A stretch of DNA of 39,027 bases, from IMG/VR virus record IMGVR_UViG_2531839663_000007. One strand, given 5' to 3'. The notes under the pieces are model-generated. The model saw nothing but the letters and a program-made list of their open reading frames with translations. It did no database searches and was not told the origin of the DNA. This DNA is from a virus (taxonomy: Duplodnaviria > Heunggongvirae > Uroviricota > Caudoviricetes). Shown in pieces: positions 2,834-28,883 of this stretch. The position numbers and the translations under genes are program-made. How positions within the stretch are numbered: the first letter of the stretch is position 1; every line of letters begins with the position of its first letter.

Positions 2834-3430
2834 TTAATTCGAGACTATTGTACTTCTTATACAAGCAACCACTTCAATATCAGAAAATGCACATTCAAAG
2901 CTATTCTCTGCTGTTGTAATTTTAATCATTCCTTTAGGAAGCCTTGTGATTTTTCGAATGGAATAGGTTCCGTCGATATTGATTAACCAGTTTCCATCAA
3001 GTACTTCAGAAAATTTTTGATCACAAATGTATGTGACGAGTCCATCCTGAACAACAATTGGTGATGAAAGGTTTGCAGGAAGAAATGATGAATCGAAGAC
3101 ATATGAACCGTCTTCAATCATTTTGCCTGCGGCAAGGCGAAACTTAACAAGCTCTTCTGTAGCTGCTGTCAGCGAGCTTTGCTTAAGGCCTTGTCCGGTA
3201 GTTAACCATTTGAGGGAGGTTCCTGTTTCAAGAGCACATTGGATTATCCAGTCAGCAGGAAATGTATCCCGCAAATACCTGTTCGCTAGTGTGCTTTTTG
3301 ATACTTCCAAGTGATCAGCTAAAGCCTGTCGTGTCGTAAAGCCATAGGCTTCGACTAATCGCTCAATCGCAGCCTTACCACCTTTATTGGGATTTATTTT
3401 GATCTCACTTGGGTACTTTGATGTTGACAT
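2834..3430 (-). CDS. cI: CI-like immunity repressor (186 CI-type), 198 aa
   Basis: Recalled similarity to 186 CI (AYGF..NRY.R, ALETG..L.WL.TG, EC..D C-terminal region); position between int and divergent apl/cII. Confidence 0.8.
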   Translation of the reverse strand: MSTSKYPSEIKINPNKGGKAAIERLVEAYGFTTRQALADHLEVSKSTLANRYLRDTFPADWIIQCALETGTSLKWLTTGQGLKQSSLTAATEELVKFRLAAGKMIEDGSYVFDSSFLPANLSSPIVVQDGLVTYICDQKFSEVLDGNWLINIDGTYSIRKITRLPKGMIKITTAENSFECAFSDIEVVACIRSTIVSN

Positions 3431-3779: not shown

Positions 3780-4289
3780 ATGTTTGATTACCAAGTTTCC
3801 AAACATCCACATTTTGATGAAGCCTGTCGTGCATTCGCACTGCGCCACAATCTGGTGCAACTGGCAGAACGTGCGGGCATGAATGTGCAGATTCTGCGGA
3901 ACAAGCTGAACCCAGCTCAACCTCATTTATTAACCGCACCAGAAATCTGGCTGCTTACCGATCTGACTGAAGATTCAACGTTGGTAGATGGTTTTCTGGC
4001 ACAGATTCATTGTCTGCCATGTGTACCGATTAATGAGGTAGCAAAAGAGAAACTGCCGCATTACGTCATGAGCGCAACTGCAGAGATCGGGCGTGTTGCA
4101 GCAGGTGCGGTATCTGGTGATGTAAAAACTAGTGCCGGTCGTCGTGATGCTATCAGCAGCATTAACTCTGTAACACGACTGATGGCGCTGGCTGCTGTTT
4201 CATTGCAAGCCCGTTTACAGGCTAATCCTGCGATGGCGAGTGCAGTTGATACCATGACTGGCCTTGGTGCTTCATTCGGTTTGCTGTGA
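3780..4289 (+). CDS. cII: CII-like lysogeny establishment regulator, 169 aa
   Basis: Size and position match 186 CII (169 aa); GAGGTG RBS; internal ATG chosen within the track ORF 3726-4289. Confidence 0.6.
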
Positions 4290-4296
4290 GGTGTTT

Positions 4297-4593
4297 ATGC
4301 TGACGAAAGAACCATCATTTGCATCGCTGCTGGTAAAACAAAGCCCGGCAATGCACTACGGTCACGGCTGGATCACGGGTGAGGATGGAAAACGCTGGCA
4401 TCCATGTCATTCACAAGATGAATTGCTGTCTGAATTGACCACGAGGAAACGGAGAAAGTCCAAATGTATGCGGCAGAAAGTGAAGTGGTTTATCAGTTTC
4501 GTTACAGAGGGGAGAGTTATTCAGTACCTGAAGATGATTTGCTCTGTTGCTATCCGTCATTGTCGGGCGATGGCAGTTACTTTTTCACGTTAA
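4297..4593 (+). CDS. Hypothetical early-region protein, 98 aa
   Basis: ORF with GAGGTG RBS right after cII; overlaps the next ORF in another frame. Confidence 0.35.
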   Translation: MLTKEPSFASLLVKQSPAMHYGHGWITGEDGKRWHPCHSQDELLSELTTRKRRKSKCMRQKVKWFISFVTEGRVIQYLKMICSVAIRHCRAMAVTFSR

Positions 4594-4688
4594 AGGATGG
4601 GACGTTTTTACGGGGAGAGCAGGTTAAAGAGACGATACGAAAAAATGTATCTCCTCTTGAGCGTTACCGTAAGAACAAAGAACGATAG
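4464..4688 (+). CDS. Hypothetical early-region protein, 74 aa
   Basis: ORF with GGAG RBS about 9 nt upstream; overlaps 4297-4593. Confidence 0.4.
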   Translation: MYAAESEVVYQFRYRGESYSVPEDDLLCCYPSLSGDGSYFFTLKDGTFLRGEQVKETIRKNVSPLERYRKNKER

Positions 4689-4710
4689 CTGCGTTTGGGG
4701 GATATGAAGT

Positions 4711-5052
4711 ATGGCAATTAATGGCGCTGCAGCAACTGTTCCATTAAGCCCCGGTGAACGCCTGAATGGACTTAATCACATTGCGGAGTTAAGGTCGAAA
4801 GTTTTTGGCCTGAATATTGAGTCAGAGCTTGAGCGGTTTATTAAAGATATGCGTGATCCACGGGATATCAATAATGAACAAAATAAACGGGCACTGGCTG
4901 CCATATTCTTTATGGCAAAAATTCCAGCTGAACGTCATAGCATCAGCATTAATGAGCTGACCACTGACGAAAAGCGGGAGCTGATTAAAGCAATGAATCA
5001 TTTTCGTGCAGTGGTGAGCTTATTTCCCAGACGGCTAACCATGCCGAATTAA
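4711..5052 (+). CDS. Hypothetical early-region protein, 113 aa
   Basis: ORF in co-directional early operon. Confidence 0.5.
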   Translation: MAINGAAATVPLSPGERLNGLNHIAELRSKVFGLNIESELERFIKDMRDPRDINNEQNKRALAAIFFMAKIPAERHSISINELTTDEKRELIKAMNHFRAVVSLFPRRLTMPN

Positions 5053-5119
5053 CCAACTAATGAAATTAATGGCGTAAACCCGCCGGGCATCCCTTTATCT
5101 AAATTCAGGAGAATTGATT

Positions 5120-5353
5120 ATGCGTAATATTGAAACCCTCACGACTAAAACCGGACCGGATGACGCAGGGCTTAATATTTTACTGACAGAGGCTCGTCTG
5201 GAAGAACGCCGGGCAAGGGCTGAAGCAATGGCTGCTCGCCTTGATAGCCTGGCGTGTCATATCTCATCCCGCCAGCTAAACCACGTGGAAGCGGCAGAAC
5301 TGCTGCGCGTGACTGCTGAAGCAATCCAGAACGAAGCGCAGGAGATCCACTAA
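5120..5353 (+). CDS. Hypothetical early-region protein, 77 aa
   Basis: AGGAG RBS upstream; stop overlaps next start (TAATG). Confidence 0.5.
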   Translation: MRNIETLTTKTGPDDAGLNILLTEARLEERRARAEAMAARLDSLACHISSRQLNHVEAAELLRVTAEAIQNEAQEIH

Positions 5354-5580
5354 TGGCTGATGCAATGGATCTCGTACAGCAGCGCGTTGAAGAAGAACGC
5401 CAGCGCCATATCCGTGCAGCCCGTGCCAAATCACCGGGCGTGTCACGCGTACTTTGCATTGAATGTGAAGCGCCAATTCCGCCAGCACGACGCCGCGCCA
5501 TTCCGGGAGTGCAGCTTTGCATTACCTGTCAGGAAATCGCAGAACTGAAAGGCAAACATTACAACGGAGGTGCTGTATGA
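5353..5580 (+). CDS. TraR/DksA-family C4 zinc-finger protein, 75 aa
   Basis: CxxC..CxxC pattern (CIECEAPIP...CITCQE) typical of TraR/DksA; coupled to neighbours. Confidence 0.7.
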   Translation: MADAMDLVQQRVEEERQRHIRAARAKSPGVSRVLCIECEAPIPPARRRAIPGVQLCITCQEIAELKGKHYNGGAV

Positions 5581-6434
5581 GCACCATCCTGAAATGGGCG
5601 GGAAATAAAACCGCCATTATGCCAGAACTGAAAAAATACCTTCCTGCTGGCCCGCGACTGGTTGAACCTTTCGCGGGTTCCTGTGCTGTGATGATGGAAA
5701 CGGATTATCCCAGCTATCTGGTTGCGGATATTAATCCTGATTTAATCAACCTCTATAAAAAGGTTGCCGCTGATTGTGAATCGTTTATATCTCGCGCCAG
5801 AGTTTTATTTGAGATCGCAAACAGGGAGGTGGCTTATTACAACATAAGGCAGGAGTTTAACTGCTCAACTGAAATTACTGATTTCATGAAAGCGGTATAT
5901 TTCCTGTATCTCAATCGTCACGGTTACCGTGGTTTATGTCGCTATAACAAGAGCGGGCATTTCAACATTCCCTACGGTAATTATAAAAATCCGTATTTCC
6001 CTGAAAAAGAACTTCGCACATTTGCAGAAAAAGCCCAGCGAGCGACGTTTATCTGCGCCAGCTTTGATGAAACGCTGGCGATGTTGAAGGCGGGAGATGT
6101 GGTGTATTGCGATCCGCCATATGACGGTAAGTTTTCCGGCTATCACACTGATGGTTTCACTGAAGATGACCAGTATCACCTGGCATCCGTTCTTGAACAT
6201 CGGTCATCAGAAGGACATCCGGTCATTGTTTCTAACAGTGACACATCCCTGATCCGTTCGCTGTATCGCAATTTTACTCACCACTATATCAAGGTAAAAC
6301 GCAGCATCGGTGTGGCAGCTGGCGAGGGTAAATCAGCAACAGAAATCATTGCTGTTTCCGGGCCGCGCTGCTGGATGGGATTTGATTATTCGCGTGGCGT
6401 GGATAGTTCTGCCGTGTACGGAGTACGTGCATGA
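5577..6434 (+). CDS. dam: DNA N6-adenine methyltransferase (Dam-like, D12 class), 285 aa
   Basis: N-terminal LKWAGNK and FAGS motifs, catalytic DPPY (VYCDPPYDG); ATGA overlaps at both ends. Confidence 0.85.
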
Positions 6435-8845
6435 GTCATGCCGATATGAACAACTGCTGCGGCTTTAACGAGGCTGCCGCAGCATTCTCATGGAACAGCC
6501 CGAAAAAGGCCATTAACCCTTATCTGGACCCGGCGGAAGTTGCGCCGGTTTCTACGCTTTCAAACCTGATCACTCTGTACGCTGCCGATAACGAGCAGGA
6601 ACAGTTGCGCCGCGAGGCACTGAGTGATCAGGTCTGGGAGCGTTATTTCTTTAATGAATCACGTGATCCTGTCCAGCGCGAAATGGAGCAGGATAAGCTC
6701 ATTAGCCGGGCAAAGCTGGCGCATGAGCAGCAGCGTTTTAATTCAGACATGGTCATTCTGGCGGACGTCAACGCCCAGCCTTCCCATATCAGCAAGCCGC
6801 TGATGCAACGTATTGAATACTTCAGCAGCCTGGGCAGGCCAAAGGCTTATTCCCGCTATTTACGTGAGACGATTAAGCCATGTCTGGAACGACTGGAGCA
6901 TGTACGCGACAGTCAGCTATCTGCATCTTTTCGCTTTATGGCAAGCCATGAAGGGCTGGACGGCCTGCTGATCCTGCCTGAAATGAGTCAGGATCAGGTG
7001 AAACGCCTGTCCACCCTGGTAGCTGCGCATATGAGTATGTGCCTTGATGCAGCTTGTGGTGATTTGTATGCCACCGATGACGTTAAGCCAGAAGAAATCC
7101 GCAAGACATGGGAAAAGGTGGCAGCGGAAACCCTGCGTCTGGATGTCATCCCACCTGCGTTTGAGCAACTCCGTCGGAAAAGAAACCGCCGTAAACCCGT
7201 GCCCTATGAACTCATTCCGGGTTCGCTGGCGCGTATGTTGTGCGCCGACTGGTGGTATCGGAAATTATGGAAGATGCGTTGCGAATGGCGGGAAGAGCAG
7301 TTGCGCGCTGTTTGCCTGGTCAGCAAAAAAGCATCTCCTTATGTCAGCTATGAAGCCGTGATGCATAAACGTGAGCAGCGTCGTAAGTCGCTGGAGTTTT
7401 TCCGTTCTCATGAACTGGTGAACGAAGACGGCGACACGCTGGACATGGAGGATGTGGTAAACGCCAGCAGCAGCAACCCTGCGCATCGCCGCAATGAGAT
7501 GATGGCCTGTGTTAAAGGTCTGGAGCTTATCGCGGAAATGCGCGGTGACTGCGCCGTTTTCTACACTATCACCTGTCCGTCGCGTTTCCATTCCACGCTA
7601 AATAACGGCAGACCAAACCCGACCTGGACAAACGCGACGGTAAGACAAAGCAGCGATTATCTGGTCGGTATGTTTGCTGCATTTCGTAAGGCGATGCACA
7701 AAGCCGGGTTGCGCTGGTATGGCGTGCGGGTGGCTGAGCCGCATCATGATGGCACAGTTCACTGGCACCTGTTGTGTTTCATGCGCAAAAAAGACCGCCG
7801 TGCCATCACTGCATTACTGCGTAAGTTTGCCATCCGTGAAGACCGCGAGGAGCTGGGCAATAACACTGGGCCGCGCTTTAAGTCTGAGTTGATTAACCCG
7901 CGCAAAGGAACGCCGACAAGCTACATCGCGAAATATATCAGTAAGAACATTGACGGTCGTGGTCTGGCTGGCGAGATCAGCAAGGAAACGGGTAAATCTC
8001 TGCGTGATAACGCTGAATACGTGAATGCCTGGGCGTCTCTGCATCGTGTTCAGCAATTCCGCTTCTTTGGTATTCCGGGGCGTCAGGCTTACCGTGAACT
8101 TCGCTTGCTGGCTGGTCAGGCGGCAAGGCAACAGGGTGACAAAAAAGCAGGTGCGCCGGTACTGGATAACCCGCGTCTTGATGCCATTCTGGCTGCTGCT
8201 GATGCTGGTTGTTTTGCCACCTACATCATGAAGCAGGGCGGCGTACTGGTTCCCCGTAAATATCACCTCATCAGAACCGCTTATGAAATCAACGAAGAGC
8301 CGACCGTCTATGGCGATCACGGCATTCGTATTTATGGCATCTGGTCACCCATTGCAGAGGGCAAGATCTGCACTCATGCAGTGAAGTGGAAAATGGTTCG
8401 TAAAGCCGTTGACGTTCAGGAGGCGGCAGCCGACCAGGGCGCTTGCGCCCCTTGGACTCGTGGCAATAACTGTCCCCTTGCTGAAAATTTGAACCAACAG
8501 GAGAAAGATAAATCAGCTGATGGGGACCCCAGAACGGACATTACCCGCATGGATGACAAGGTGTTGCACGATTACCTGCACAGTATGAACAAAAAGGAGC
8601 GCCGGGAATTGGCTGCAAGGTTACGTCTGGTGAAACCGAAACGGCGTAGAGACTACAAACAGCGAATTACAGACCATCAACGACAGCAGCTCGTCTATGA
8701 ACTGAAATCCAGAGGATTTGATGGCAGCGAGAAAGAGGTCGATTTACTCCTTCGCGGCGGCAGTATTCCGTCAGGAGCAGGCCTGCGTATCTTCTATCGG
8801 AACCAGCGTTTGCAGGAAGATGATAAGTGGCGGAACCTGTATTAA
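6431..8845 (+). CDS. A: Replication initiation endonuclease (P2 gpA-like rolling-circle initiator), 804 aa
   Basis: Large protein after early operon with HUH-type motif (VHWHLL) and [10 protein letters not shown]-like region; position as in P2/186. Confidence 0.85.
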
Positions 8846-8937
8846 TTACGCTGGTTAACAATTCGTGCTCTTAATAATACCAGGCATATCAGGCTGATAA
8901 GCGTAAAAAAACGTTTTACATCAGTAAGATTATTATA

Positions 8938-8957
8938 TACTGTAAATATAAACAGTG
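8938..8957. promoter_or_regulatory. LexA (SOS) box TACTGTAAATATAAACAGTG
   Basis: CTGT-N8-ACAG with AT-rich spacer, about 40 bp upstream of ATG 8999; adjacent half-site ending ACAG at 8967-8970. Confidence 0.55.
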
Positions 8958-8998
8958 GTTATACATACAGTATTGCGTGTGGTGTCATAGGAGGAAAG

Positions 8999-9187
8999 AT
9001 GCAGGACTATTTTTTGGAGTCTTTGAAGCTCCAGCGCATTGATTTTTTTCTTAAGCTTGTAGCGGCTAGTGAGTGTAGTGATGAAGAGAAGGGGCTGGCT
9101 CTGCAGTGGGTTTCTGAATTGACTGATGAACTCATGGCAAAAATCAGAAGCCACGAATACAACCGCTCAATGGATGTCATCAACTGA
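8999..9187 (+). CDS. Small SOS-regulated protein, possibly the N-terminal part of a Tum-like antirepressor, 62 aa
   Basis: Strong RBS GGAGGAAAG; downstream of LexA box; followed by DinI-like ORF as in 186 tum. Confidence 0.5.
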   Translation: MQDYFLESLKLQRIDFFLKLVAASECSDEEKGLALQWVSELTDELMAKIRSHEYNRSMDVIN

Positions 9188-9197
9188 GGTAACTTTT

Positions 9198-9431
9198 ATG
9201 CGCATTGAAATAATGATCGATAAAGAGCAGAAGATTAGCCAGTCTACCCTGGACGCCCTTGAATCCGAGCTTTACCGCAATCTGCGCCCCCTGTATCCCA
9301 AAACGGTAATCCGTATCCGTAAAGGTAGCTCTAACGGTGTGGAACTGACCGGACTGCAACTGGACGAAGAAAGAAAACAAGTGATGAAAATTATGCAGAA
9401 GGTGTGGGAAGACGACAGCTGGCTGCATTGA
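9198..9431 (+). CDS. DinI-family protein, 77 aa
   Basis: MRIEIMIDKEQ...VWEDDSWL resembles E. coli DinI (MRIEVTIAK...TWESADDWF); GAGGT RBS. Confidence 0.7.
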   Translation: MRIEIMIDKEQKISQSTLDALESELYRNLRPLYPKTVIRIRKGSSNGVELTGLQLDEERKQVMKIMQKVWEDDSWLH

Positions 9432-9485
9432 TTTTGTCAATAGACGCTTGTTTTTACTAATCAAAAAGGGTTACATATGAGTGAG

Positions 9486-9518
9486 AGGCGATGTCAATCA
9501 GATATCGCCTTGTTTTTT
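9486..9518 (+). terminator. Rho-independent terminator after the DinI-like gene
   Basis: Stem AGGCGAT/ATCGCCT with 11-nt loop followed by TGTTTTTT. Confidence 0.6.
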
Positions 9519-9544
9519 GTCAAGAAAAGAATAATAGGCTAAAA

Positions 9545-10222
9545 ATGAAAATTAATAATGTAGCGTTACCAATATCTCTTGCTGTAATCCTAACTGGTTG
9601 CGTGCCACATGCTTCTAACCGAAATATCACTGCTATTGAAGTGGTGAAGCCTGCTATTGGGCAAAGTGCTACCGCCTACATGGGCGATCCCATTATCACA
9701 TCTGCTACTGGATTTAAAACGGACGTACTAGAACTTGGTGCGGCTAATGGTGCATTGTCTTCTATCGCTGCTGGTACATATTGCAGTGAGGGGAATGGAA
9801 TTTACCGCAATTATCATAACCCTCAAGCTGTTGCGTTAAAAAATCTCTATGGGCAAATCGGTAACTATGTTGATTATGTTAGTTACGATGCTGCAAAAAA
9901 TGAGATATCACCGCCAAATGGTACTTCTTATACTGCATCAGAAATTTCTATCAAACGTGTTCCTGATGGGCTGTGTCGAGTTAGTAACTCATTGGTTAAG
10001 ACTATCGAATACAATGGAAATGCAGGCGGTGTAATGAAGTTCACCTATCGTGAATTTGCAAACGATATGGCTCGTGCAGCATTTACAACAGATTTTTCTG
10101 TAGATTCTAAGGGAAGTGACGTTATCGCTTACAAAGGTGCCAAGTTCAAAGTGAACAAGGCTGATAACTCGTCTATTTCTTATACAATTATTTCTGGCTT
10201 TGACAAGGCTGTCACGTTCTAG
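9545..10222 (+). CDS. Lipoprotein of unknown function (moron), 225 aa
   Basis: Signal peptide with lipobox LTGC (MKINNVALPISLAVILTGC); flanked by terminators; reduced GC. Confidence 0.7.
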   Translation: MKINNVALPISLAVILTGCVPHASNRNITAIEVVKPAIGQSATAYMGDPIITSATGFKTDVLELGAANGALSSIAAGTYCSEGNGIYRNYHNPQAVALKNLYGQIGNYVDYVSYDAAKNEISPPNGTSYTASEISIKRVPDGLCRVSNSLVKTIEYNGNAGGVMKFTYREFANDMARAAFTTDFSVDSKGSDVIAYKGAKFKVNKADNSSISYTIISGFDKAVTF

Positions 10223-10326
10223 GTTTCACGCTTGCTGAGTATGTTACGATTTTGCACATTCTGCATAAACGCGCATGTCTATGCTGCATGAGATCGCATG
10301 ATCGTTTGAGGATCTTTTGTGTTAAG

Positions 10327-10350
10327 GCCCGCCAGTTCTGGCGGGCTTTT
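10327..10350 (+). terminator. Rho-independent terminator
   Basis: Stem GCCCGCC/GGCGGGC with short loop followed by TTTT. Confidence 0.6.
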
Positions 10351-10493
10351 GCGTAGATCATGCAGGTGCATGAAAACCACTACATAAAGCGGGCAGGCGT
10401 GGCGGGGATACGAGCGCGCGCTAACTAAAAAGCTAGAGAATCTGTGAATTTTTCAATAGTATTATTCTTAGTTAACTAAAGGAGAATCTTATC

Positions 10494-11558
10494 ATGGCAG
10501 AAAACGGACCTCGTGAAGACTTGGCGAAGCTGGTGTCCCATAAACTATTGGAAAGATTTAAGTGGAAGCAACACGGTCCGACCGATCATGATTTTCCGTG
10601 TACTGAACAAGAATTACACAAGCCAGCGGAAAAAACGCAAGACCACACACATCCAGTTGATATTGTCTTTCATTATAAAGATCCTTACTTAAATAAAATT
10701 GTTTATCTAAATACTGATTTGAAAAGTTATTCAAAAGGGTCTTTAAATTCTAAAATGGTTGAAAATGCTTTAGATTCCTTAGCAAAAACTATTCATTGTG
10801 CGCAGAATAGTCAGGTATGGAAAAGTCGCTATGAGACAACCATGTCTAAAAGTGAAGTACGAGGGTTACTTTTTGTATATAATCATGATAATGACTATAA
10901 GCATAATTTCTATGACTATTTTTATCCTCCTAAACCCAAAAAAGGGAAAAGACCTGCGGCAGTTAATTTAGACAGAGTAAATGTATCTGAAAATCAGCAA
11001 ATACATATAATTGAGCCACGAACTATTAGTTATCTTATGTCTGTTGTTGCTGATATGAACGAAATGATTGCGGAAAATAAATTCCCGCGTGATGATTATG
11101 GGTTCTATTATCCTCAATTAATACTTCATAAGGTTGTGACTGCAGAAGAATATCTTCCAGCTACAGTGGAAACTCTAACATCCCCCTACATGATAATTAA
11201 ACATGGTCCAGTAATAGAATATAATAGAGCTAAAAAGGAGGACGAGCTGGTTTATCCTGAAGGGTTTATTGTTTATTACAACCGCTCCGGTAAAACAGAC
11301 TTAGAGTTTAATTATTTATTAGATACTCTAGCTAACTACCAGATATTAAACTCAAAAAATAATATTAGAATTAGAGTAGCATGTATTGATAAAAGTGAGC
11401 ACATACGGACTAATTTTATAAAAGCTATAGAAAAATTTTCATATCAGTGGGGATATGATGAATCTATGAAGGAAAAATTATTATCTATTGAGCTATATAT
11501 TGTGCCTCTATCTCGAGAGCAATATTTAACAGAAGAAAGATCATGGGATGTTAAATAA
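10494..11558 (+). CDS. Unrecognised protein, gene 1 of three-gene cargo operon, 354 aa
   Basis: AAAGGAGAA RBS 7 nt upstream; AT-rich; possible PD-(D/E)xK-like motif (PVDIVFHYKD...YLNTDLK) is inference only. Confidence 0.75.
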   Translation: MAENGPREDLAKLVSHKLLERFKWKQHGPTDHDFPCTEQELHKPAEKTQDHTHPVDIVFHYKDPYLNKIVYLNTDLKSYSKGSLNSKMVENALDSLAKTIHCAQNSQVWKSRYETTMSKSEVRGLLFVYNHDNDYKHNFYDYFYPPKPKKGKRPAAVNLDRVNVSENQQIHIIEPRTISYLMSVVADMNEMIAENKFPRDDYGFYYPQLILHKVVTAEEYLPATVETLTSPYMIIKHGPVIEYNRAKKEDELVYPEGFIVYYNRSGKTDLEFNYLLDTLANYQILNSKNNIRIRVACIDKSEHIRTNFIKAIEKFSYQWGYDESMKEKLLSIELYIVPLSREQYLTEERSWDVK

Positions 11559-12634
11559 TGAGTGAAATACACAGTGTTACAGACAAAGCTTTATACGAGG
11601 CTTTATGCCAATCACGTGTCACTGATAATGATATGGTGGAATTGTTTTTATCCCGTGGAATTTTGGTGTCAAAAAAAACTGAGCGTAAGCAACTAGCAAA
11701 AAATTTCTCAAAGCTCACTCATGATTATTATTTGCATCAGAAAATTTCTGGAATATTTGGAGGTTTTTTAAGGCGAGAGAAATCTACGGCTATAGTTATT
11801 AAGAATAATATTGATAAGCCACTACTTGTTAAGGCTGCTAATAAGCTTAAAGATCAGCTGGAAAGCGAAGATGATATATGTCATGTAATCAGTGATAAAG
11901 ATTTTATTAAAATTAGCATTACATACTTATCAACCAATTTTGGTAAAAGTGAATTTAACCAAGTAGAGAAGAAAACTGCTGTTTTTGAAATCGAGTCCCT
12001 TTCGGATGGTTTTTCAATTCGTAGGCCTGATAGTGAACAAGCTGAGATTTATAATAAAAAACTACTAAGTATTATCGAACAGGTTATACAAAAGGAAAAA
12101 GATATAGAAGCAACGACTTTAGATACAGAAGAAATCAACCTCGCGAACATCGATGACGCAGATAAAAGAACAGAATTTTTTAAGCGGCTCATCAATGGGT
12201 TGGATGGATATGTTTTAGATGATGTTACGGATGTTTATATCTACCATCCTAAACCTGCTGTCATGGAGGAGGAAGATGGGGATTCTGAAACAGGAATACA
12301 TATTAGCAAAGCATCTTTGAAAGGAGAGGGGGTGCTTAAATCTGAAGAGTTGAATTCTTTGTATGATAGAGGGTTTTATATTTGGAAAATAAGATGGAGA
12401 ATAAAGGATAAATCTACTACTCCAGATCTTTATGATTTTGAAGCTCAGTTTAGTGATCCTTTAGAGTTTAAGAGCTTTTCATATATTTCTAGAGGGGTGA
12501 GGAAATATAAAGGTGCCGGAGAATATAATAAAAATCCGAGCCAATTACCGGATGATGAAGAATATCATTTTAAAAGACTTATTGAAAAAACGGCGCGTTC
12601 AATTATAATGGATATTAATAAAGAGTATGAGTGA
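11558..12634 (+). CDS. Unrecognised acidic protein, gene 2 of three-gene cargo operon, 358 aa
   Basis: Start overlaps stop of gene 1 (TAATG); AT-rich; no Walker A or other motif recognised. Confidence 0.75.
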   Translation: MSEIHSVTDKALYEALCQSRVTDNDMVELFLSRGILVSKKTERKQLAKNFSKLTHDYYLHQKISGIFGGFLRREKSTAIVIKNNIDKPLLVKAANKLKDQLESEDDICHVISDKDFIKISITYLSTNFGKSEFNQVEKKTAVFEIESLSDGFSIRRPDSEQAEIYNKKLLSIIEQVIQKEKDIEATTLDTEEINLANIDDADKRTEFFKRLINGLDGYVLDDVTDVYIYHPKPAVMEEEDGDSETGIHISKASLKGEGVLKSEELNSLYDRGFYIWKIRWRIKDKSTTPDLYDFEAQFSDPLEFKSFSYISRGVRKYKGAGEYNKNPSQLPDDEEYHFKRLIEKTARSIIMDINKEYE

Positions 12635-12642
12635 GATAACAA

Positions 12643-13347
12643 ATGAAAACACTGGATAAAATTAAGTGGAGCAGAGTGAAGTTATCAATAACCTTCTCTG
12701 AACTAATTGATTATTTTAAACGTAATTCTTATGATGAAAGTAAAGGTTATGGTTATACTTTTGTGAATTTTACTGAACATGAAGTTTCCGCTTCTTATGT
12801 TGAAAAGTCATTGCGTACAGAAGTTATTGTATCGCCCGCGGGAGATGAGATAGAACAAGATTTTTTAGAGTATGAAACCATAAAATTTGCATTAAAGCCC
12901 GTATCTAAAAATCTCTCTTTATTGGCTATTTTTAATCCCCCTAAATCTATAAAGAAATTGACGGATAGACTTAGTGTAGATTTCAATTATAGGGTTGGAT
13001 TTGGTTCAATTACCTTAAATTTAAAGGAGTATATAAATTATCTAAGTTTACAGCATTCAATAAGTCTATTACATATTGATAAAATTAAAGTTAGCAATGT
13101 TGTGTTAAATGGGAACTCCAAGGCCTCGGTTGAGATAACTTCCACAAAAAATGCATTGTTAGAGCTAGAAAGTATTTTTACTAACAAAAAATATAATATA
13201 GATAAAGTTAGGTTGCATTGTTTGATTTACGGGGAACCTTCTTTTGTTGAGCTTTCAAAAAGCGCTTTTATTAATTCAGATTCTAATCATCTGGATTTTT
13301 ACTCCGACTTCCTCATTCAGCAATTATCTAATGATGAATTTCGTTAA
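12643..13347 (+). CDS. Unrecognised protein, gene 3 of three-gene cargo operon, 234 aa
   Basis: Starts 8 bp after gene 2; AT-rich; followed by hairpin. Confidence 0.75.
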   Translation: MKTLDKIKWSRVKLSITFSELIDYFKRNSYDESKGYGYTFVNFTEHEVSASYVEKSLRTEVIVSPAGDEIEQDFLEYETIKFALKPVSKNLSLLAIFNPPKSIKKLTDRLSVDFNYRVGFGSITLNLKEYINYLSLQHSISLLHIDKIKVSNVVLNGNSKASVEITSTKNALLELESIFTNKKYNIDKVRLHCLIYGEPSFVELSKSAFINSDSNHLDFYSDFLIQQLSNDEFR

Positions 13348-13453: not shown

Positions 13454-14494
13454 TTAAGTTGCCTTTTCAAGCTTGTAAGGGATAAAACGTATAATCTCGT
13501 GGCCGAGCCAGCAGTTAAGCTCCATTATTAGCTTCTGTAGTGGCAATAATTCATTCCTTACAAATACATTACTTGCCTTCTCCACATCCCCAAACCCCCC
13601 AACATTATTCGGCATAATCCCCATCATTTGCGGCGGCACACGATGCGCCGCCATCATGTCGTCCCGGCTTACGTTCTTGATGTTCAGAAACTCATCCTTT
13701 GCCGCCACTTCTGACAGCGGGATGATCTGAAGCCCGTCCTTTTTGCCGTTAGGCGAGTACATAAACAGGTTGCGGAAGTTGCCCGGACCTTTGGCGCTTT
13801 TCATCGCGTTGCGGAGGTTGTTCACATCCTCCTGGTTCTGAGCGGCATCGGTCATGTACATTATGAATCCTGCATGGCTGCCATTAATATAATATTTGCG
13901 TCGGAACAGCGTGGCGGACTCGTTGAGCAGGGCTGACGGAATGGCAGAAAGATAGCCGGGCAGGCCGTAGATCTCCTGGTTGATATCGGGTTCCATCAGA
14001 TGAAAGATGCTGCCTTTCGTGAACTGATACGGCTGGGTTGTCATACCGTATTGCACAAACCAGTAGGTATCCAGGTCTAACCCGCGTCGGGTGTATTTTG
14101 CCAGAGCAGGCTCAAGGGCGATAACTTCACCGAAGCGGTTCGTGCGTTTCTCCAGGTAGGCGTTACCAAATACCAGATAGTCCTGCACAAAACGTGAAAA
14201 AGCCTGCTGGCTAAGCAGCGGGTGAGGGATGTAGGTGCTGGTTAGAATGTTGCATTTCACTGCAATGGGTGAGCTGTGATGCACGGCGGCGCGGAAGGTT
14301 CGCGCCAGTCCGTCAAAGCTGACGGGCGGCTCATACCAACGGTCCATCTGTACGCATTCCACATAGTCCAGTAATTCTCGGCGGTCCAGTACTGGAATGG
14401 GATCGCCGAAGCTGAATGCTTCGGCTGAAGTCTGGCTTTTATGCTGGGTCTGGTTCTGCGACGCAGCGCGGTTCTTCTTACTCTTTCCCATCAA
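13454..14494 (-). CDS. Q: Portal protein (P2 gpQ-like), 346 aa
   Basis: Size and position; ATGA overlap with terminase large subunit. Confidence 0.85.
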   Translation of the reverse strand: MMGKSKKNRAASQNQTQHKSQTSAEAFSFGDPIPVLDRRELLDYVECVQMDRWYEPPVSFDGLARTFRAAVHHSSPIAVKCNILTSTYIPHPLLSQQAFSRFVQDYLVFGNAYLEKRTNRFGEVIALEPALAKYTRRGLDLDTYWFVQYGMTTQPYQFTKGSIFHLMEPDINQEIYGLPGYLSAIPSALLNESATLFRRKYYINGSHAGFIMYMTDAAQNQEDVNNLRNAMKSAKGPGNFRNLFMYSPNGKKDGLQIIPLSEVAAKDEFLNIKNVSRDDMMAAHRVPPQMMGIMPNNVGGFGDVEKASNVFVRNELLPLQKLIMELNCWLGHEIIRFIPYKLEKAT

Positions 14495-16257
14495 AAAATC
14501 TCCACAATATTGCTGGTATTGGCGGACTCGCCCTGCAGCGGTTCGTTAAACAGTGCGTGCATTGTTGCCCAGGCCAGATCGGCGTGGCTGGCTTCTTCGC
14601 TGCGGCTGGCTTCATAGGTCGGGCGGTTGCCACTGGCGGTGGTGGCGCGACGGATTGCCATAAATGACTGCGCTATGTCGGTGTGTCCGGCGTCAAACTC
14701 CAGACGGCGGTGGCTGATAATGTCGTAGGCCTTGAGTACCAGAGCGTTTTTAACGTTGGGGTTGTAGACAAACTCCCGGACGGCAGGAAAGAACGCTTTC
14801 ACGTTCTCATAAACCCCGTGACCGACGCCTGTCGAGTCAATGCCGATATAGGTCACGTTGTACTGCTCGGTCAGTTTTTTGATTGCATCAGCCTGGGCGC
14901 GGAAGTCCATCCCGCGCCACTGGTGACGCTCAAGAATGCGAAACTTACCGCCTGGCACGGCTGGCGGTGCCACCACCACGCATCCGGCGCTGTCGCCGTT
15001 CTGCGTACCTTTTGCCGGGTCATAACCGATCCACACCTCGCGCCAGCCAAACGGGCGCAGGGCCAGTGCATGAAAGTCGGTCCAGACTTCCCAACTGTCC
15101 ACCATGCACGCCTGCAGTTCGCTGAGCGGGAACACGGACGCGAGATCGTCCACGAACTCGCACATCAGCAGGTTCTGGTATTCGTCCGGGCTGTACTCCA
15201 TGCGTAGCTGGTCGAGGTCGAACAGGTTACAGCCGCCGCGCACCGCATCTTCCACGGTGACTATCTGGCGGTATTGCCCGTCTGCGCACAGCAAGCCGGG
15301 GGCCAGATTGTTGTGGGACAGGTCGATGTCCACCTTATCGGCTTTGTTGCGCCCACGGTTAAACAGCGCACCGGACCAGAACGGATAAGCACTGTGTGTC
15401 AGGCTGGATGGCGTGGAAAAATAGGTTTGTCGCCATTTTTTGTGAATAGCCATACCGGAAGCCACTTTGCGCAGCTCCTGGAATTTCGGTATCCAGAAAT
15501 ATTCATCCAGATACAGGTTGCCGTGGTAACTCTGGGCCGTGCGGGCATTGGTGCCGAGGAAGTAAAGCGTGGCCCCGTTGGGAAGCACCATCGGATCGCC
15601 TTTCAGCTCCACCTCCACTTCTTTGGCGAAGTCGATGATGTACTGTTTAAAGACGTGGGCCTGTGCCTTACTGGCGGAAAGGAAAATCTGGTTACGTCCG
15701 GTAAGCAGGGCGTCAATCAGGGCTTCACGGGCAAAGTAAAAGGTCGCGCCGATCTGGCGTGACTTCAGCAGGTTGCGGATGCGGTTGGTTTTTCCGGCTT
15801 CCCACCAGTGGCGCTGGTAGTTGAACATGGAGGAATGGAAAATTTCTTCCAGCTTCTCAATCTGTTCATCGGTGAAAACGTTCTTTTCCGGCTGACGGCG
15901 TGGGCCTTTGTTGCGGTTGGCGACGTTAGGGTTTAAGTCGGCTTCGTTGCCGCCATTGTTAAACTTGCCGATCCGCGCGTGGCGTTCCGACTGGCGCGCC
16001 AGCAGGTCAATCTCTTTGAAATCTTTCCCTTCTTTGTGCTCCTTCATAATGAGCTGGCAGTAGCGTGCGGCGGTGGTGAGCTGCATCTGATCCAGCGGCC
16101 CATAGTCACCCCACTTGTCGCGTTTTTTCCAGCTGTGAACGGTTGCAACTTTCTCGCCCAGCATTTCAGCAATGCGGGCTACGCGGTATCCCTGAAAGTA
16201 CAGCAGCATGGCCTGCCGACGGGGATCGAGATCTGCGGGTGTCAGTGTGGTGTTCAT
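14491..16257 (-). CDS. P: Terminase large (ATPase) subunit (P2 gpP-like), 588 aa
   Basis: Size and position, divergent from scaffold gene. Confidence 0.85.
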   Translation of the reverse strand: MNTTLTPADLDPRRQAMLLYFQGYRVARIAEMLGEKVATVHSWKKRDKWGDYGPLDQMQLTTAARYCQLIMKEHKEGKDFKEIDLLARQSERHARIGKFNNGGNEADLNPNVANRNKGPRRQPEKNVFTDEQIEKLEEIFHSSMFNYQRHWWEAGKTNRIRNLLKSRQIGATFYFAREALIDALLTGRNQIFLSASKAQAHVFKQYIIDFAKEVEVELKGDPMVLPNGATLYFLGTNARTAQSYHGNLYLDEYFWIPKFQELRKVASGMAIHKKWRQTYFSTPSSLTHSAYPFWSGALFNRGRNKADKVDIDLSHNNLAPGLLCADGQYRQIVTVEDAVRGGCNLFDLDQLRMEYSPDEYQNLLMCEFVDDLASVFPLSELQACMVDSWEVWTDFHALALRPFGWREVWIGYDPAKGTQNGDSAGCVVVAPPAVPGGKFRILERHQWRGMDFRAQADAIKKLTEQYNVTYIGIDSTGVGHGVYENVKAFFPAVREFVYNPNVKNALVLKAYDIISHRRLEFDAGHTDIAQSFMAIRRATTASGNRPTYEASRSEEASHADLAWATMHALFNEPLQGESANTSNIVEIF

Positions 16258-26795: not shown

Positions 26796-27239
26796 ATGAA
26801 CGAATATATTTATAGCGCAAGGCATAATGCTTTTTTCCCTGTGGATATGATTGATAAATATAAATCAGAGGGATGGGATTTATCAGATGCTAAGGAAGTG
26901 AATCAAAATATTATCAGTGAGTTTATGGCTGAACCGCCACAAGGAAAAATCCGTATTGCCGGAAATGATGGGCTGCCTGCGTGGGCAGATATTCCTCCAC
27001 CCACGCATGAAGAGCTTATTGAAATTACTGAATCAGAAAGACAGCTATTAATTAACCAGGCCAACGAATACATGAACAGTAAACAATGGCCCGGTAAAGC
27101 CGCTATTGGTCGTCTGGAAGGTGACGAACTGGCGCAATATAATTTGTGGCTGGATTATCTGGACGCACTGGAGCTGGTCGATACTTCCGGTGCGCCAGAT
27201 ATTGAATGGCCTACGCCTCCGGCAGTTCAGGCCAGATGA
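26796..27239 (+). CDS. Tail fibre assembly chaperone, 148 aa
   Basis: Follows the tail-fibre C-terminal segment; C-terminal motif LWLDYLDALELVDTSGAPDIEWPTPP shared with the minus-strand chaperone. Confidence 0.7.
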   Translation: MNEYIYSARHNAFFPVDMIDKYKSEGWDLSDAKEVNQNIISEFMAEPPQGKIRIAGNDGLPAWADIPPPTHEELIEITESERQLLINQANEYMNSKQWPGKAAIGRLEGDELAQYNLWLDYLDALELVDTSGAPDIEWPTPPAVQAR

Positions 27240-27813
27240 CATCCGGCGCGGTGCTGGTATCTGTTGCCGTCACCGCGTCAATGTAATCCAGCACAGCGTT
27301 AAGGCGGGTTGTTTCTGCCTGCGTCAGTTTACGTCCGGCCTGCAATTTCAGCTGAATCAGACTGATGGAGGCCATTGCAGTATCAATCAGCGACTGGCGC
27401 TGTGCTTCTGCTGCATCTACTGCTGCGCCGTGCTGTGCCTCGGTATCCGTCACCCATTTCTCACCATCCCATTTATCGTATGGCGTTAACGGGGCGATAG
27501 TGGTTGTATTATCAGGGTAATCACCCGGAGCTGTGATTTCTTTTGATTCCCCTGTTTCGGTGCTAAAAACGATTTCACCGCGATGGTCTGGCATATATTC
27601 CCATGATTTTAAATCTGCTGAACGGCAGATAGTATAACCAGCCTTATATGTACCAGGAGCATCTAAACAGGAATACGCCGGAATACCGACACCCACAACA
27701 AGATATTCGGTTGATGTGGAAAGATATTCCTTCGTCTCAGCATCAAAATTATAAACGGTAATGTTTCCTGCCTTTGTAGTAATGAGTTCGCTATTTAATA
27801 CGGCTTTATTCAT
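27211..27813 (-). CDS. Tail fibre assembly chaperone, alternative copy inside invertible segment, 200 aa
   Basis: C-terminal motif VLDYIDAVTATDTSTAPDVIWPELP; convergent with plus-strand chaperone. Confidence 0.7.
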   Translation of the reverse strand: MNKAVLNSELITTKAGNITVYNFDAETKEYLSTSTEYLVVGVGIPAYSCLDAPGTYKAGYTICRSADLKSWEYMPDHRGEIVFSTETGESKEITAPGDYPDNTTTIAPLTPYDKWDGEKWVTDTEAQHGAAVDAAEAQRQSLIDTAMASISLIQLKLQAGRKLTQAETTRLNAVLDYIDAVTATDTSTAPDVIWPELPEA

Positions 27814-28289
27814 CAGGCTGCCCTCACGATATAGTTAAATGCGACGTTGCGCGGCCGGGTTTCAGAACCACCAACCGATACCGTAGAAATTGAATTTGCC
27901 GTAATAAGTTCCCCGAAAGCATCAGCCGTAACTACAAACCGACCTCCCGTTGGATCAAAACCTGTTAGCGCATAGTACTTGTCAAACCAGTGCCCATGAG
28001 AAGCAAATAAATGGTCTTGAGATGTCAACAAACCACGAGAGGAATCCACCCCACGCCCATCATCCCATCCACGAATAAATTCACCGCGTAAATCAGGCAA
28101 TTTATTTGTCGGGTAAGCCTTTGCCAGTTCCGGGTATTCTTCAGCAGAAAAAGCCGCACCATTGCATTTCAACCAGCCTGTTGGCGGAGTGGCTGAAGGC
28201 CACGGAACAGGCACCCCAACAGGTAATGCTGAGCCTTCTCCCAAACCAACGTTTAAGAAAATGCAGAGGTAACAGCTAACTGGCATCAT
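27813..28289 (-). CDS. Alternative tail-fibre C-terminal variable segment (Mu S / P1 S type); in-frame coding ends near 28,248, so it is expressed only after inversion fuses it to gpH
   Basis: Contains GSALPVGVPVPWPSATPPTGWLKCNGAAFSAEEYPELAKAYPTNKLPDLRGEF identical to gpH end, then an intact domain; stop overlaps chaperone start. Confidence 0.65.
   Translation of the reverse strand: MMPVSCYLCIFLNVGLGEGSALPVGVPVPWPSATPPTGWLKCNGAAFSAEEYPELAKAYPTNKLPDLRGEFIRGWDDGRGVDSSRGLLTSQDHLFASHGHWFDKYYALTGFDPTGGRFVVTADAFGELITANSISTVSVGGSETRPRNVAFNYIVRAA
28236..28261. other. Candidate invertase crossover site R, TTCTCCCAAACC-AA-CGTTTAAGAAAA, inverted relative to L1/L2
   Basis: Left half matches gix-type half-site TTATCCAAAACC at 10 of 12 positions; boundary of the long inverted homology. 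Confidence 0.5.
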
Positions 28290-28316
28290 CTCCGGTTTTT
28301 ATTCAGGGGGATGATC

Positions 28317-28883
28317 ATGCTTATTGGCTATGTACGCGTGTCAACAAATGACCAGAACACCGATTTGCAACGTAATGCACTGAACTGCGCGGGATGTGAG
28401 CGGATTTTTGAGGACAAAATCAGTGGCACTAAGTCCGACAGACCGGGGCTGAAAAAACTACTCAGGACACTATCGGCAGGAGACACGCTGGTTGTCTGGA
28501 AGCTGGACAGGTTGGGGCGCAGTATGCGGCATCTTGTTACGCTGATAGAAGAGTTGCGCCAGCGTGGTGTGAATTTCAGAAGCCTGACTGACAGTATTGA
28601 TACCAGTACCCCAATGGGCCGTTTCTTTTTTCATGTCATGGGTGCCCTGGCTGAAATGGAACGCGAACTGATAGTTGAACGTACCAGGGCAGGGCTGGCT
28701 GCAGCTCGTGCCAAAGGCAGAGTAGGTGGACGCCGTCCTAAGTTGACCACCGAACAGTGGGCACAGATTGGGCGTTTACTCGAGGCCGGAGAATCAAGAC
28801 AGCGTATTGCACTGATTTTTGATGTAGGCGTTTCTACCATTTATAGAAAATTTCCGGCAAATAAGATCAATGAATCCCCCTGA
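28317..28883 (+). CDS. Serine DNA invertase (Hin/Gin/Cin/Pin family), 188 aa
   Basis: N-terminus LIGYVRVSTNDQ with catalytic Ser, resolvase domain and C-terminal HTH (GVSTIYRKF); close recalled similarity to Hin. Confidence 0.9.
   Translation: MLIGYVRVSTNDQNTDLQRNALNCAGCERIFEDKISGTKSDRPGLKKLLRTLSAGDTLVVWKLDRLGRSMRHLVTLIEELRQRGVNFRSLTDSIDTSTPMGRFFFHVMGALAEMERELIVERTRAGLAAARAKGRVGGRRPKLTTEQWAQIGRLLEAGESRQRIALIFDVGVSTIYRKFPANKINESP

Follow-up and report, generated by a model that had tools for sequence, protein, structure and literature searches.

A Probable SOS-Operon Lipoprotein Gene beside cos in a Fels-2/186-Type Prophage and Its Possible Role in Phage Exclusion

Introduction

The closest described counterpart of the locus analyzed here is the SOS operon of phage 186. 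In the 186 record (NC_001317), promoter p95 is annotated as responsible for "SOS-dependent transcription of SOS operon," and a LexA site overlaps its -10 hexamer, TACTGT. The tum gene, annotated as DinI-like and LexA-repressed, is followed by t95a ("partial termination of p95 transcript"), by orf97, whose annotation reads "expression from plasmid blocks 186 infection," and then by t95b and cos. The source for this operon is Brumby et al. (1996), as cited in PMC5322425. Here we examine the corresponding region of IMGVR_UViG_2531839663_000007, an IMG/VR record of a tailed virus (Caudoviricetes) of 39,027 nucleotides, the whole of which is referred to below as the window. In this region a gene for a 225-amino-acid (aa) lipoprotein (9545-10222) lies between a DinI-family gene and cos; these features, and all others of the SOS operon, the cassette and the cos region discussed below, are given on the plus strand. 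An earlier note on this DNA, made from its letters, had described the gene as a self-contained moron, independently transcribed between two terminators, whose product might mediate superinfection exclusion. Our analysis suggests that the gene is probably a late member of an SOS operon and that its product may act at the cell envelope.

Other phage genes offer looser parallels. T5 Llp and the Cor proteins of phi80, N15 and HK022 are also phage-encoded outer-membrane lipoproteins, and they inactivate FhuA. These proteins have about 60-80 aa, compared with 206 aa for the mature protein studied here. T5 Llp is made during lytic growth, a timing which resembles the SOS-timed expression proposed below. 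HK97 gp15, the first described moron, is a superinfection-exclusion protein (Cumby et al. 2012; PMC3594210). Like the lipoprotein gene, it is a single envelope-protein gene added to a temperate phage, and both have cellular relatives, of the YebO type in the case of gp15. Distant relatives of the lipoprotein also occupy the gp15 slot, from the tail assembly chaperone to the tape measure, which is a likeness of slot only. However, gp15, a small YebO-family protein, is located in the inner membrane and is no lipoprotein, and the gene in the window lies far from the tail genes.

The gpA-to-gpQ hotspot of P2, which holds tin and old (Rousset et al. 2022, PMC9122126), is likewise a variable, low-GC and exchanged region between gene A and cos, and WP_000700647, the RefSeq accession of the lipoprotein, is listed as "hypothetical" in the table of P2 hotspot loci of that study. 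On the other hand, old and tin are transcribed leftward from their own promoter near cos, whereas the lipoprotein gene is co-oriented with the SOS operon. Moreover, tin and old are on the other side of cos, and in the lineage of the window the hypervariable cargo is found between cos and the portal gene. What is new is an uncharacterized occupant of a known position; accessory low-GC genes between gene A and cos, as well as the 186 SOS operon, had already been described.

Results

Layout and Expression of the SOS Operon

A promoter similar to p95 was found at 8915-8957. It has a -35 hexamer TTTACA (8915-8920), a 17-nt spacer and a -10 hexamer TACTGT (8938-8943), and the latter lies within a LexA box, TACTGTAAATATAAACAGTG (8938-8957), which is the only perfect CTGT-N8-ACAG match in the window. 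The first SOS-operon gene is an open reading frame (ORF) of 62 aa (8999-9187; phrog_698, E = 1e-37), which is equivalent to Fels-2 STM2728 and is conserved at 97-100% in every Fels-2-type locus examined. It is followed by the DinI-family gene (9198-9431; Pfam DinI, E = 7e-23; phrog_189), the counterpart of the C-terminal DinI-like part of 186 Tum, which the Fels-2 record likens to PsP3 TumB. The lipoprotein gene, known as STM2726 in Fels-2 and EcHS_A0921 in Escherichia coli HS, comes next.

A hairpin with a U-tract, here called T1 (9485-9518), starts 53 nt past the DinI gene and ends 26 nt short of the lipoprotein ATG. Its 11-bp stem (9485-9511) is followed by UUGUUUUUUG up to position 9518, and its folding energy is -16.6 kcal/mol (z = -3.9), a value that none of 200 shuffled sequences equaled. 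Among four diverged variants, whose lipoprotein homologs share 82-96% aa identity, pairing is kept via two compensatory double changes, and 87% of the alignment cells are paired versus at most 67% for slid controls. An Rfam scan of 8700-10600 detected no RNA family.

T1 is the positional equivalent of 186 t95a, and the resemblance between the two loci extends to the LexA box over the -10 TACTGT, the DinI-like Tum-type product, the order of the elements and the homologous cos. The hairpin stands 27 nt before orf97 in 186 and 26 nt before the lipoprotein ATG here, and the two hairpins have comparable stabilities of -19.2 and -16.6 kcal/mol, respectively, so that T1 is a candidate partial terminator. 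In both phages the distal gene is the last one before cos and encodes an exported or membrane protein. The loci differ in that Orf97 has an N-terminal membrane helix whereas the distal product of the window is a lipoprotein, in that Tum is split in the window into the 62-aa ORF and the DinI-like ORF, and in that the window has no separate t95b, its only downstream hairpin lying inside the cos flank. Homology between the lipoprotein and Orf97 was expected from the same position and the same ORF length of 243 codons, but BLASTP (E = 4.5) rules it out, and the lipoprotein is best regarded as a positional analog of Orf97 only.

We scanned the 26 nt between T1 and the ATG for a promoter. The sole promoter-like match (9517-9546) would place the transcription start after the ATG, and a promoter in this gap was rejected on geometry. 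Published expression data are available for the Fels-2 counterpart. In a microarray study of Salmonella TA100, which carries Fels-2, treated with the mutagen MX, STM2726, STM2727 and STM2728 form a predicted operon in which all three genes were upregulated (P < 0.05), and it is the only multi-gene operon of Fels-2 in the list of that study (PMC2225428). Within the operon, the fold change was highest (14.8) where the P-value was best and lowest (2.6) where it was worst (PMC2225428). A gradient over a leaky terminator would give such a range, with the reservation that the paper assigns no value to individual genes.

Because the layout is 186-like, the gap between T1 and the ATG offers no usable promoter and STM2726 is co-induced, a read-through model is preferred. 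Based on layout homology and the published expression data, we consider it quite probable that the lipoprotein gene belongs to the SOS operon as its distal, attenuated gene and is not transcribed independently. According to this model, the LexA-repressed promoter at 8915-8957 would drive the 62-aa gene and the DinI/Tum-type gene, and the lipoprotein mRNA would mainly be the SOS transcript reading across a leaky T1. Expression of the lipoprotein would be low in the quiet lysogen and would rise on LexA cleavage.

The Lipoprotein

The ORF at 9491-10222 comprises 243 aa and holds the 225-aa frame that begins with the ATG at 9545. The 225-aa form is that annotated in RefSeq (WP_000700647), and homologs begin at the same start. 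The gene is labeled "hypothetical" in the Fels-2, E. coli HS and RefSeq records. Codons 1-19 (9545-9601) specify a signal peptide and lipobox, MKINNVALPISLAVILTGC, with Lys2, Cys19 and the lipobox LTGC. We used a PROSITE-type rule, which includes a basic n-region, a hydrophobic h-region, a lipobox of the form [LVI][ASTVI][GAS]C and a Cys at position 15-35, and the signal peptide fits it. Gly18 and Cys19 are invariant in 22 close homologs and Cys19 in 27 distant ones (down to 22% identity), and the PROSITE-type lipobox was detected in 211 of 246 full-length family members. Judged by these signals, the protein is predicted to be exported and lipid-modified at Cys19. The residue at position +2 is Val here and A, V, T or S throughout the 246 full-length members, none of which has Asp. 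Since Asp is absent from this position (the Lol-avoidance rule of Enterobacteria), sorting to the outer membrane is predicted.

Within the close family, two additional Cys residues (C80 and C144) are also invariant, which fits a periplasmic disulfide. The mature protein of 206 aa is predicted to be all-beta, and the AlphaFold2 model (mean pLDDT 80, pTM 0.60) has approximately 17 strands. Fold searches with the lipoprotein against PDB and BFVD gave no significant match, and the best hit of its profile against PDB sequences had E = 0.2. Scans against Pfam, NCBIfam and PADLOC (PADLOC-DB v2) gave no match for the lipoprotein or for its distant relatives. The only family match was phrog_1353 (E = 3.1e-105; residues 1-223 versus profile positions 1-230 of 230), of which the lipoprotein is a full-length member; this family carries no assigned function, so the match does not inform the mechanism. 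Llp, Cor, Bor/Iss and TraT were compared via Pfam-held models, PHROGs or fold searches, with no direct protein-to-protein comparison, and gave no match. When the literature was searched with locus tags and accessions, no functional study of the lipoprotein came to light. The "lipoprotein" defense gene of Vassallo et al. (2022) was also considered; in view of the negative PADLOC scan, it probably encodes another protein.

The ratio of nonsynonymous to synonymous substitution rates is 0.04-0.065 when the gene is compared with diverged homologs occupying the same slot, indicating strong purifying selection and therefore a functional gene. The identical protein is present on at least 1,000 contigs, a count that is a lower bound, including those of clinical Klebsiella (K. 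pneumoniae), Salmonella and E. coli. The 90%-identity protein cluster that contains the lipoprotein also lists branched-chain amino-acid aminotransferases of 308 aa, one of which is its representative; this looks like a clustering artifact.

With regard to the protein, most of what the earlier note had proposed is upheld. The 225-aa lipoprotein with an LTGC lipobox fits the signal rule and has an invariant Cys19, and the suggested check of the signal confirmed the predicted signal peptide and lipobox by both the PROSITE-type pattern and homolog conservation. Neither family scans nor fold searches revealed similarity to tail or structural proteins, the other identity that the note had considered. 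The suggested structure prediction yielded a confident all-beta model, but the fold search that went with it found nothing significant in PDB or BFVD.

The Inserted Cassette and the cos Region

The lipoprotein ORF has a GC content of 0.407 (0.314 at third codon positions, GC3), versus 0.528 (GC3 0.569) for the replication gene gpA, 0.479 (GC3 0.577) for the DinI gene and 0.502 for the whole window. Together with T1 and a 50-bp tail, it forms a cassette of 841 bp (9432-10272; GC 0.397) which is missing from otherwise near-identical prophages; the sequences start to diverge at the DinI stop codon and agree again once the first base of the cos module is reached. In E. coli MS7163, 81 bp of unrelated sequence separate the DinI gene from the 148-bp cos module, and in the E. 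coli B prophage a reverse-oriented ORF of 111 aa is located there. Because the slot is empty or differently filled in relatives and both GC and GC3 deviate (the moron criterion of Juhala et al. 2000 and Cumby et al. 2012 being extra DNA of deviant composition), the cassette is a discrete foreign, moron-like insertion.

A query of 981 bp around the lipoprotein gene has matches of 98.7-100% identity in Salmonella phage Fels-2, in about 25 prophage records of Klebsiella and in 50 complete genomes of E. coli. Partial matches in approximately 1,230 further E. coli genomes, none of which has the lipoprotein, cover only query positions 834-981 (10273-10420 of the window); this 148-bp block shows 84-96% identity in these genomes and has variable DNA on both sides. 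The block (10273-10421) aligns with the joined ends of 186 and P2, which identifies the conserved module as the cos packaging region of the phage; its 19-nt cohesive end is predicted to be GGCGTGGCGGGGATACGAG (10396-10414). The corresponding cohesive ends are GGCGTGGCGGGGAAAGCAT in 186 (19 nt, annotated in NC_001317) and GGCGAGGCGGGGAAAGCAC in P2, and the flanks GCGGGCA and GCGCGC align too. In 186, the joined ends read ...CATAAAGTGGGCA, then GGCGTGGCGGGGAAAGCAT, then TGCGCGC; in the window they read ...CATAAAGCGGGCA, then GGCGTGGCGGGGATACGAG, then CGCGCGC.

The cos region holds repeated GCATG motifs and a second hairpin, T2 (10324-10350), which is GC-rich, is followed by UUUU and lies inside the right cos flank. 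T2 has an 11-bp stem (10324-10349), only four U after it and a folding energy of -21.8 kcal/mol (z = -4.3). It is the sole terminator candidate 3' of the lipoprotein gene, and a consensus terminator scan did not pick it up, owing to the short U run. T2 is kept in loci without the lipoprotein gene, and its counterpart in the alignment with 186 is a hairpin of the right-end cos flank which has no U run and no terminator annotation. As T2 lies within a cos region that is also carried by prophages without the gene, it is not part of the inserted cassette.

The description of the locus in the earlier note has to be revised in part. The GC content is indeed lower than that of the backbone, and both hairpins are real by their z-scores; however, the second belongs to the cos region and has only four U. 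Similarly, "moron" is appropriate in the sense of a discrete foreign insertion, but "self-contained" is not supported, since T2 lies in cos and no usable promoter is present between T1 and the ATG. "Independently transcribed" is not supported either, in view of the lack of promoter room in that gap, the 186 SOS layout with its partial terminator t95a and the co-induction of STM2726 with STM2727 and STM2728.

We also compared 56 cassette-bearing loci with respect to the cargo past cos. About 31 different cargoes were found, none of which is the three-gene system present in the window (10494-13347), and some loci are almost empty there (185-359 bp). Because of this variety, the lipoprotein is not tied to any defense cargo.

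Distribution of the Lipoprotein Family

A profile search of 1.84 billion representative proteins detected 2,434 relatives at E <= 1e-3, of which 1,256 had E <= 1e-10. Most of them are lipoproteins of 210-240 aa, and the named ones come from Vibrio, Photobacterium, Pseudoalteromonas, Providencia, Geobacter, Gallionella and other organisms. They share a conserved C-terminal domain of approximately 80 aa with the common motif ...SFQQTLxYNGKxGxxxxFxYREFSxxxARxAFTxxxxYDLSE..YKGA..EI..A.N..I.YKV. (x represents any amino acid). Residues Y156, G158, Y168, R169, E170, R177, D187, K197, N208, Y213 and F219 are invariant in the family alignment.

The close family is present in 58 IMG/VR viral contigs, nearly all of which are P2-type and have the gene in the same slot. 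In loci L018, L060 and L062-65, gpA is 70-74% identical and the cassette 74-82% identical. The gene has thus diverged along with the backbone, which indicates that the cassette has long been resident in this slot and did not just spread recently. Relatives with 54-61% identity were found in islands with resolvases, an AbiC-like protein, OLD nucleases or MobA.

Two loci carrying close relatives deserve separate mention. In L020, a Logan contig (SRR20799052; 4982-5865 and 9330-10678), a lipoprotein gene with 80% identity and a cos module are present without recognizable P2 genes. A CS1-type fimbrial operon lies on one side of them and a ybjL-type permease gene on the other, and the same type of permease gene flanks the prophage of the window; L020 is probably a decayed prophage remnant that has retained the lipoprotein gene. 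In a Brenneria locus (L011), a 228-aa ORF (4202-4888) lies directly upstream of a 224-aa homolog (5001-5675) and, by adjacency and size, may be a tandem paralog.

More distant relatives of the Vibrio, Photobacterium and Cronobacter type were found in 79 + 5 viral contigs, which represent siphovirus-type prophages. In 42 of the 73 unique siphovirus-type loci, an ORF of at least 600 aa is located within two genes on the same strand; one representative of these large ORFs was scanned, and PHROGs identified it as a tape-measure protein. Typically, a minor tail gene comes first and is followed by the tail assembly chaperone(s), the lipoprotein gene, in some cases a small ORF, and the tape measure, and the same order was observed in the deposited genome of Acinetobacter phage Ab1656-2 and in prophages of K. 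aerogenes and Providencia. The family may have been captured repeatedly by temperate phages of different morphotypes, beside the tape measure in siphoviruses and in the SOS operon near cos in P2/186-type phages. In addition, at least one relative, in Pseudoalteromonas, is a stand-alone chromosomal gene amid core metabolic genes. A scan of species-representative genomes gave a single locus.

Prophage Setting and Neighboring Genes

By its gene content, the window is a prophage of the P2 family (Peduoviridae) of Fels-2/186 type, with the lipoprotein gene as the last gene of the right arm. It contains an integrase (1-1053), a CI repressor (2834-3430), gpA (6431-8845) and, on the minus strand, the portal and terminase genes (13454-16257); from about 36.4 kb onward, host genes of ybjL/ybjM type are found.

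Between cos and the portal gene, three co-oriented genes (10494-13347) encode proteins of 354, 358 and 234 aa and have a GC content of 0.30-0.34. They match PADLOC Hp1, Hp2 and Hp3 (E = 3e-62, 8e-40 and 3e-14, respectively), and the first one also matches NCBIfam GapS4a, weakly (E = 2e-10) and well short of the cut-off. By the naming of the system, we take this trio to be probably the P1-protecting three-gene system of Rousset and colleagues. In their study, a three-gene system without predicted domains protects against P1 (Rousset et al. 2022, PMC9122126).

Other regions of the prophage also contain genes of possible interest. A gene on the minus strand between the integrase and the CI repressor (1137-2813) encodes a 558-aa protein with DUF4041 and a C-terminal T5orf172/MUG113 domain, domains like those of one defense protein of Vassallo et al. 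(2022), which has a DUF4041 coiled coil and a DNA-binding/cleavage domain. This gene would make a second defense-type cargo site within the prophage. At 27211-28883, tail-fiber assembly and tail-collar-domain genes (minus strand) adjoin a serine invertase/resolvase gene (28311-28883), and the arrangement looks like an invertible host-range (tail-fiber switching) segment of the Gin/Cin/Hin type.

Discussion

The explanation that best accounts for these observations, and to which we give an even chance of being correct as a whole, is that the gene encodes an SOS-operon read-through lipoprotein which acts at the envelope in phage exclusion. In an induced cell, the Tum-type protein would lift prophage immunity while the lipoprotein alters the envelope, barring other or sibling phages from entry. 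The lipoprotein could either mask a surface component or act in the periplasm, where it would interfere with the tail tip or tape measure; the tape-measure link of the siphovirus-type relatives hints at the latter over receptor masking. Parallels exist in 186 Orf97 (upon overexpression), T5 Llp and HK97 gp15 (in lysogens), all of which would be non-homologous analogies. The exclusion function, taken by itself, is proposed tentatively and is on balance doubtful. The earlier note had likewise suggested superinfection exclusion in the manner of Llp and Cor. Exclusion at the envelope is a reasonable proposal in view of the 186 orf97 position and the HK97 gp15 slot, but the lipoprotein has no family match to Llp or Cor, and receptor blocking is an analogy.

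Several points weigh against this explanation. First, upstream of T1, cTTGTTT and TTACAT blocks are exactly 17 nt apart in four diverged variants in spite of varying spacer sequence; they match the consensus at 3/6 + 3/6 positions and may represent a weak promoter. Second, sister cassettes with 79-80% aa identity (L020, L062 and L064) lack T1 and have TTGATG-16/17-TATGAT (TATGCT in L020) about 45 nt before the ATG. This promoter-like element therefore suggests autonomous expression within the family, and in the evolution of the lipoprotein gene, expression seems to have changed between the read-through and the autonomous mode. Third, the MX fold changes are not assigned to individual genes, and prophage replication could add to the rise. 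Fourth, the exclusion role would rest on position and analogy, as the lipoprotein has neither homology to Orf97 nor a match in Pfam, NCBIfam or PADLOC. Fifth, P2-type phages adsorb to lipopolysaccharide, and masking of a protein receptor is thus an unlikely defense against siblings. Finally, the stand-alone relatives suggest a general envelope function that was borrowed by phages.

An alternative to SOS-coupled expression is that the gene is a self-contained moron, transcribed from its own constitutive promoter, insulated from the SOS operon by T1, ended at T2 and expressed in the quiet lysogen as a gene of lysogenic conversion. The insertion of deviant GC, the hairpins on both sides, the conserved pair of blocks upstream of T1 and the promoter-like sites in sister cassettes and in distant relatives, some of which have a terminator and then a promoter before the gene, are all consistent with this possibility. 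However, the 26 nt between T1 and the ATG are too short for a promoter, and the single match within them would initiate transcription inside the ORF; as for the candidate blocks upstream of T1, they lack key -10 bases, and a transcript from them would meet T1 at once. In addition, the layout is identical to that of 186, in which p95 transcripts reach the distal gene by passing a partial terminator; STM2726 is induced along with STM2727 and STM2728; and T2 belongs to cos. We therefore regard independent transcription as unlikely.

A second alternative concerns the function. The protein might be a host-fitness envelope factor captured from cellular lipoproteins, involved for example in serum/complement resistance, adhesion or stress tolerance, as are lambda Bor, Lom and plasmid TraT. 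The large superfamily, present in many free-living Proteobacteria and including the stand-alone Pseudoalteromonas gene, would agree with such a role, as would the predicted outer-membrane sorting and the occurrence of the identical protein in clinical isolates. On the other hand, the lack of a Pfam match includes the Pfam-held models of Bor, TraT, Lom and Ail, SOS-linked expression better fits a role in the phage cycle than a constitutive benefit to the host, and the recurrent placement by tape-measure genes and in defense-rich islands points to phage-phage conflict. The chance that this alternative is correct appears small.

Many immunity proteins against envelope-acting toxins are small all-beta lipoproteins, a form which the protein shares. 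It might be an immunity or inhibitor protein that works in the periplasm and counters a toxin or enzyme acting on the envelope, such as a type VI secretion system effector, a bacteriocin or a lysozyme. The invariant charged residues R169, E170, R177, D187 and K197 suggest a binding site, and some relatives are located in accessory islands. However, no effector gene adjoins the lipoprotein gene in any context examined, and no fold similarity to known inhibitor families was found, which makes this role improbable. The idea that the lipoprotein is an accessory component of the adjacent three-gene defense system, which is on the same strand and also low in GC, was rejected as hardly credible, being contradicted by the cos site between them and by the cargo survey, in which the cassette occurs with other cargoes or nearly without any.

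On a broader scale, the exclusion proposal may be extended from this gene to its relatives. The large unnamed family of phage-borne outer-membrane lipoproteins (approximately 2,400 clusters at 50% identity) could constitute a new class of superinfection-exclusion proteins, a possibility that we consider unlikely at present. Such proteins would target the tail tip or tape measure of the incoming phage in the periplasm and, in phages of the 186 type, would be co-switched with the antirepressor. As a group of phage-associated lipoproteins, the family is large and unannotated; its predicted fold has no match in PDB or BFVD, and its tape-measure neighborhood provides a concrete hypothesis.

If the SOS-coupled model is true, 186/Fels-2-type phages switch on an envelope protein just as their own immunity is lifted, and this timing would fit protection of the induced cell against superinfection. 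Because the gene is common (at least 1,000 contigs), phage therapy and phage typing would be concerned if it had any influence on phage sensitivity. Our analysis also adds to the hotspot map of P2-type phages. In the Fels-2/186-type prophages examined, the hypervariable defense cargo is located between cos and the portal gene, and a second, smaller variable slot, which holds the lipoprotein gene, is located between tum and cos.

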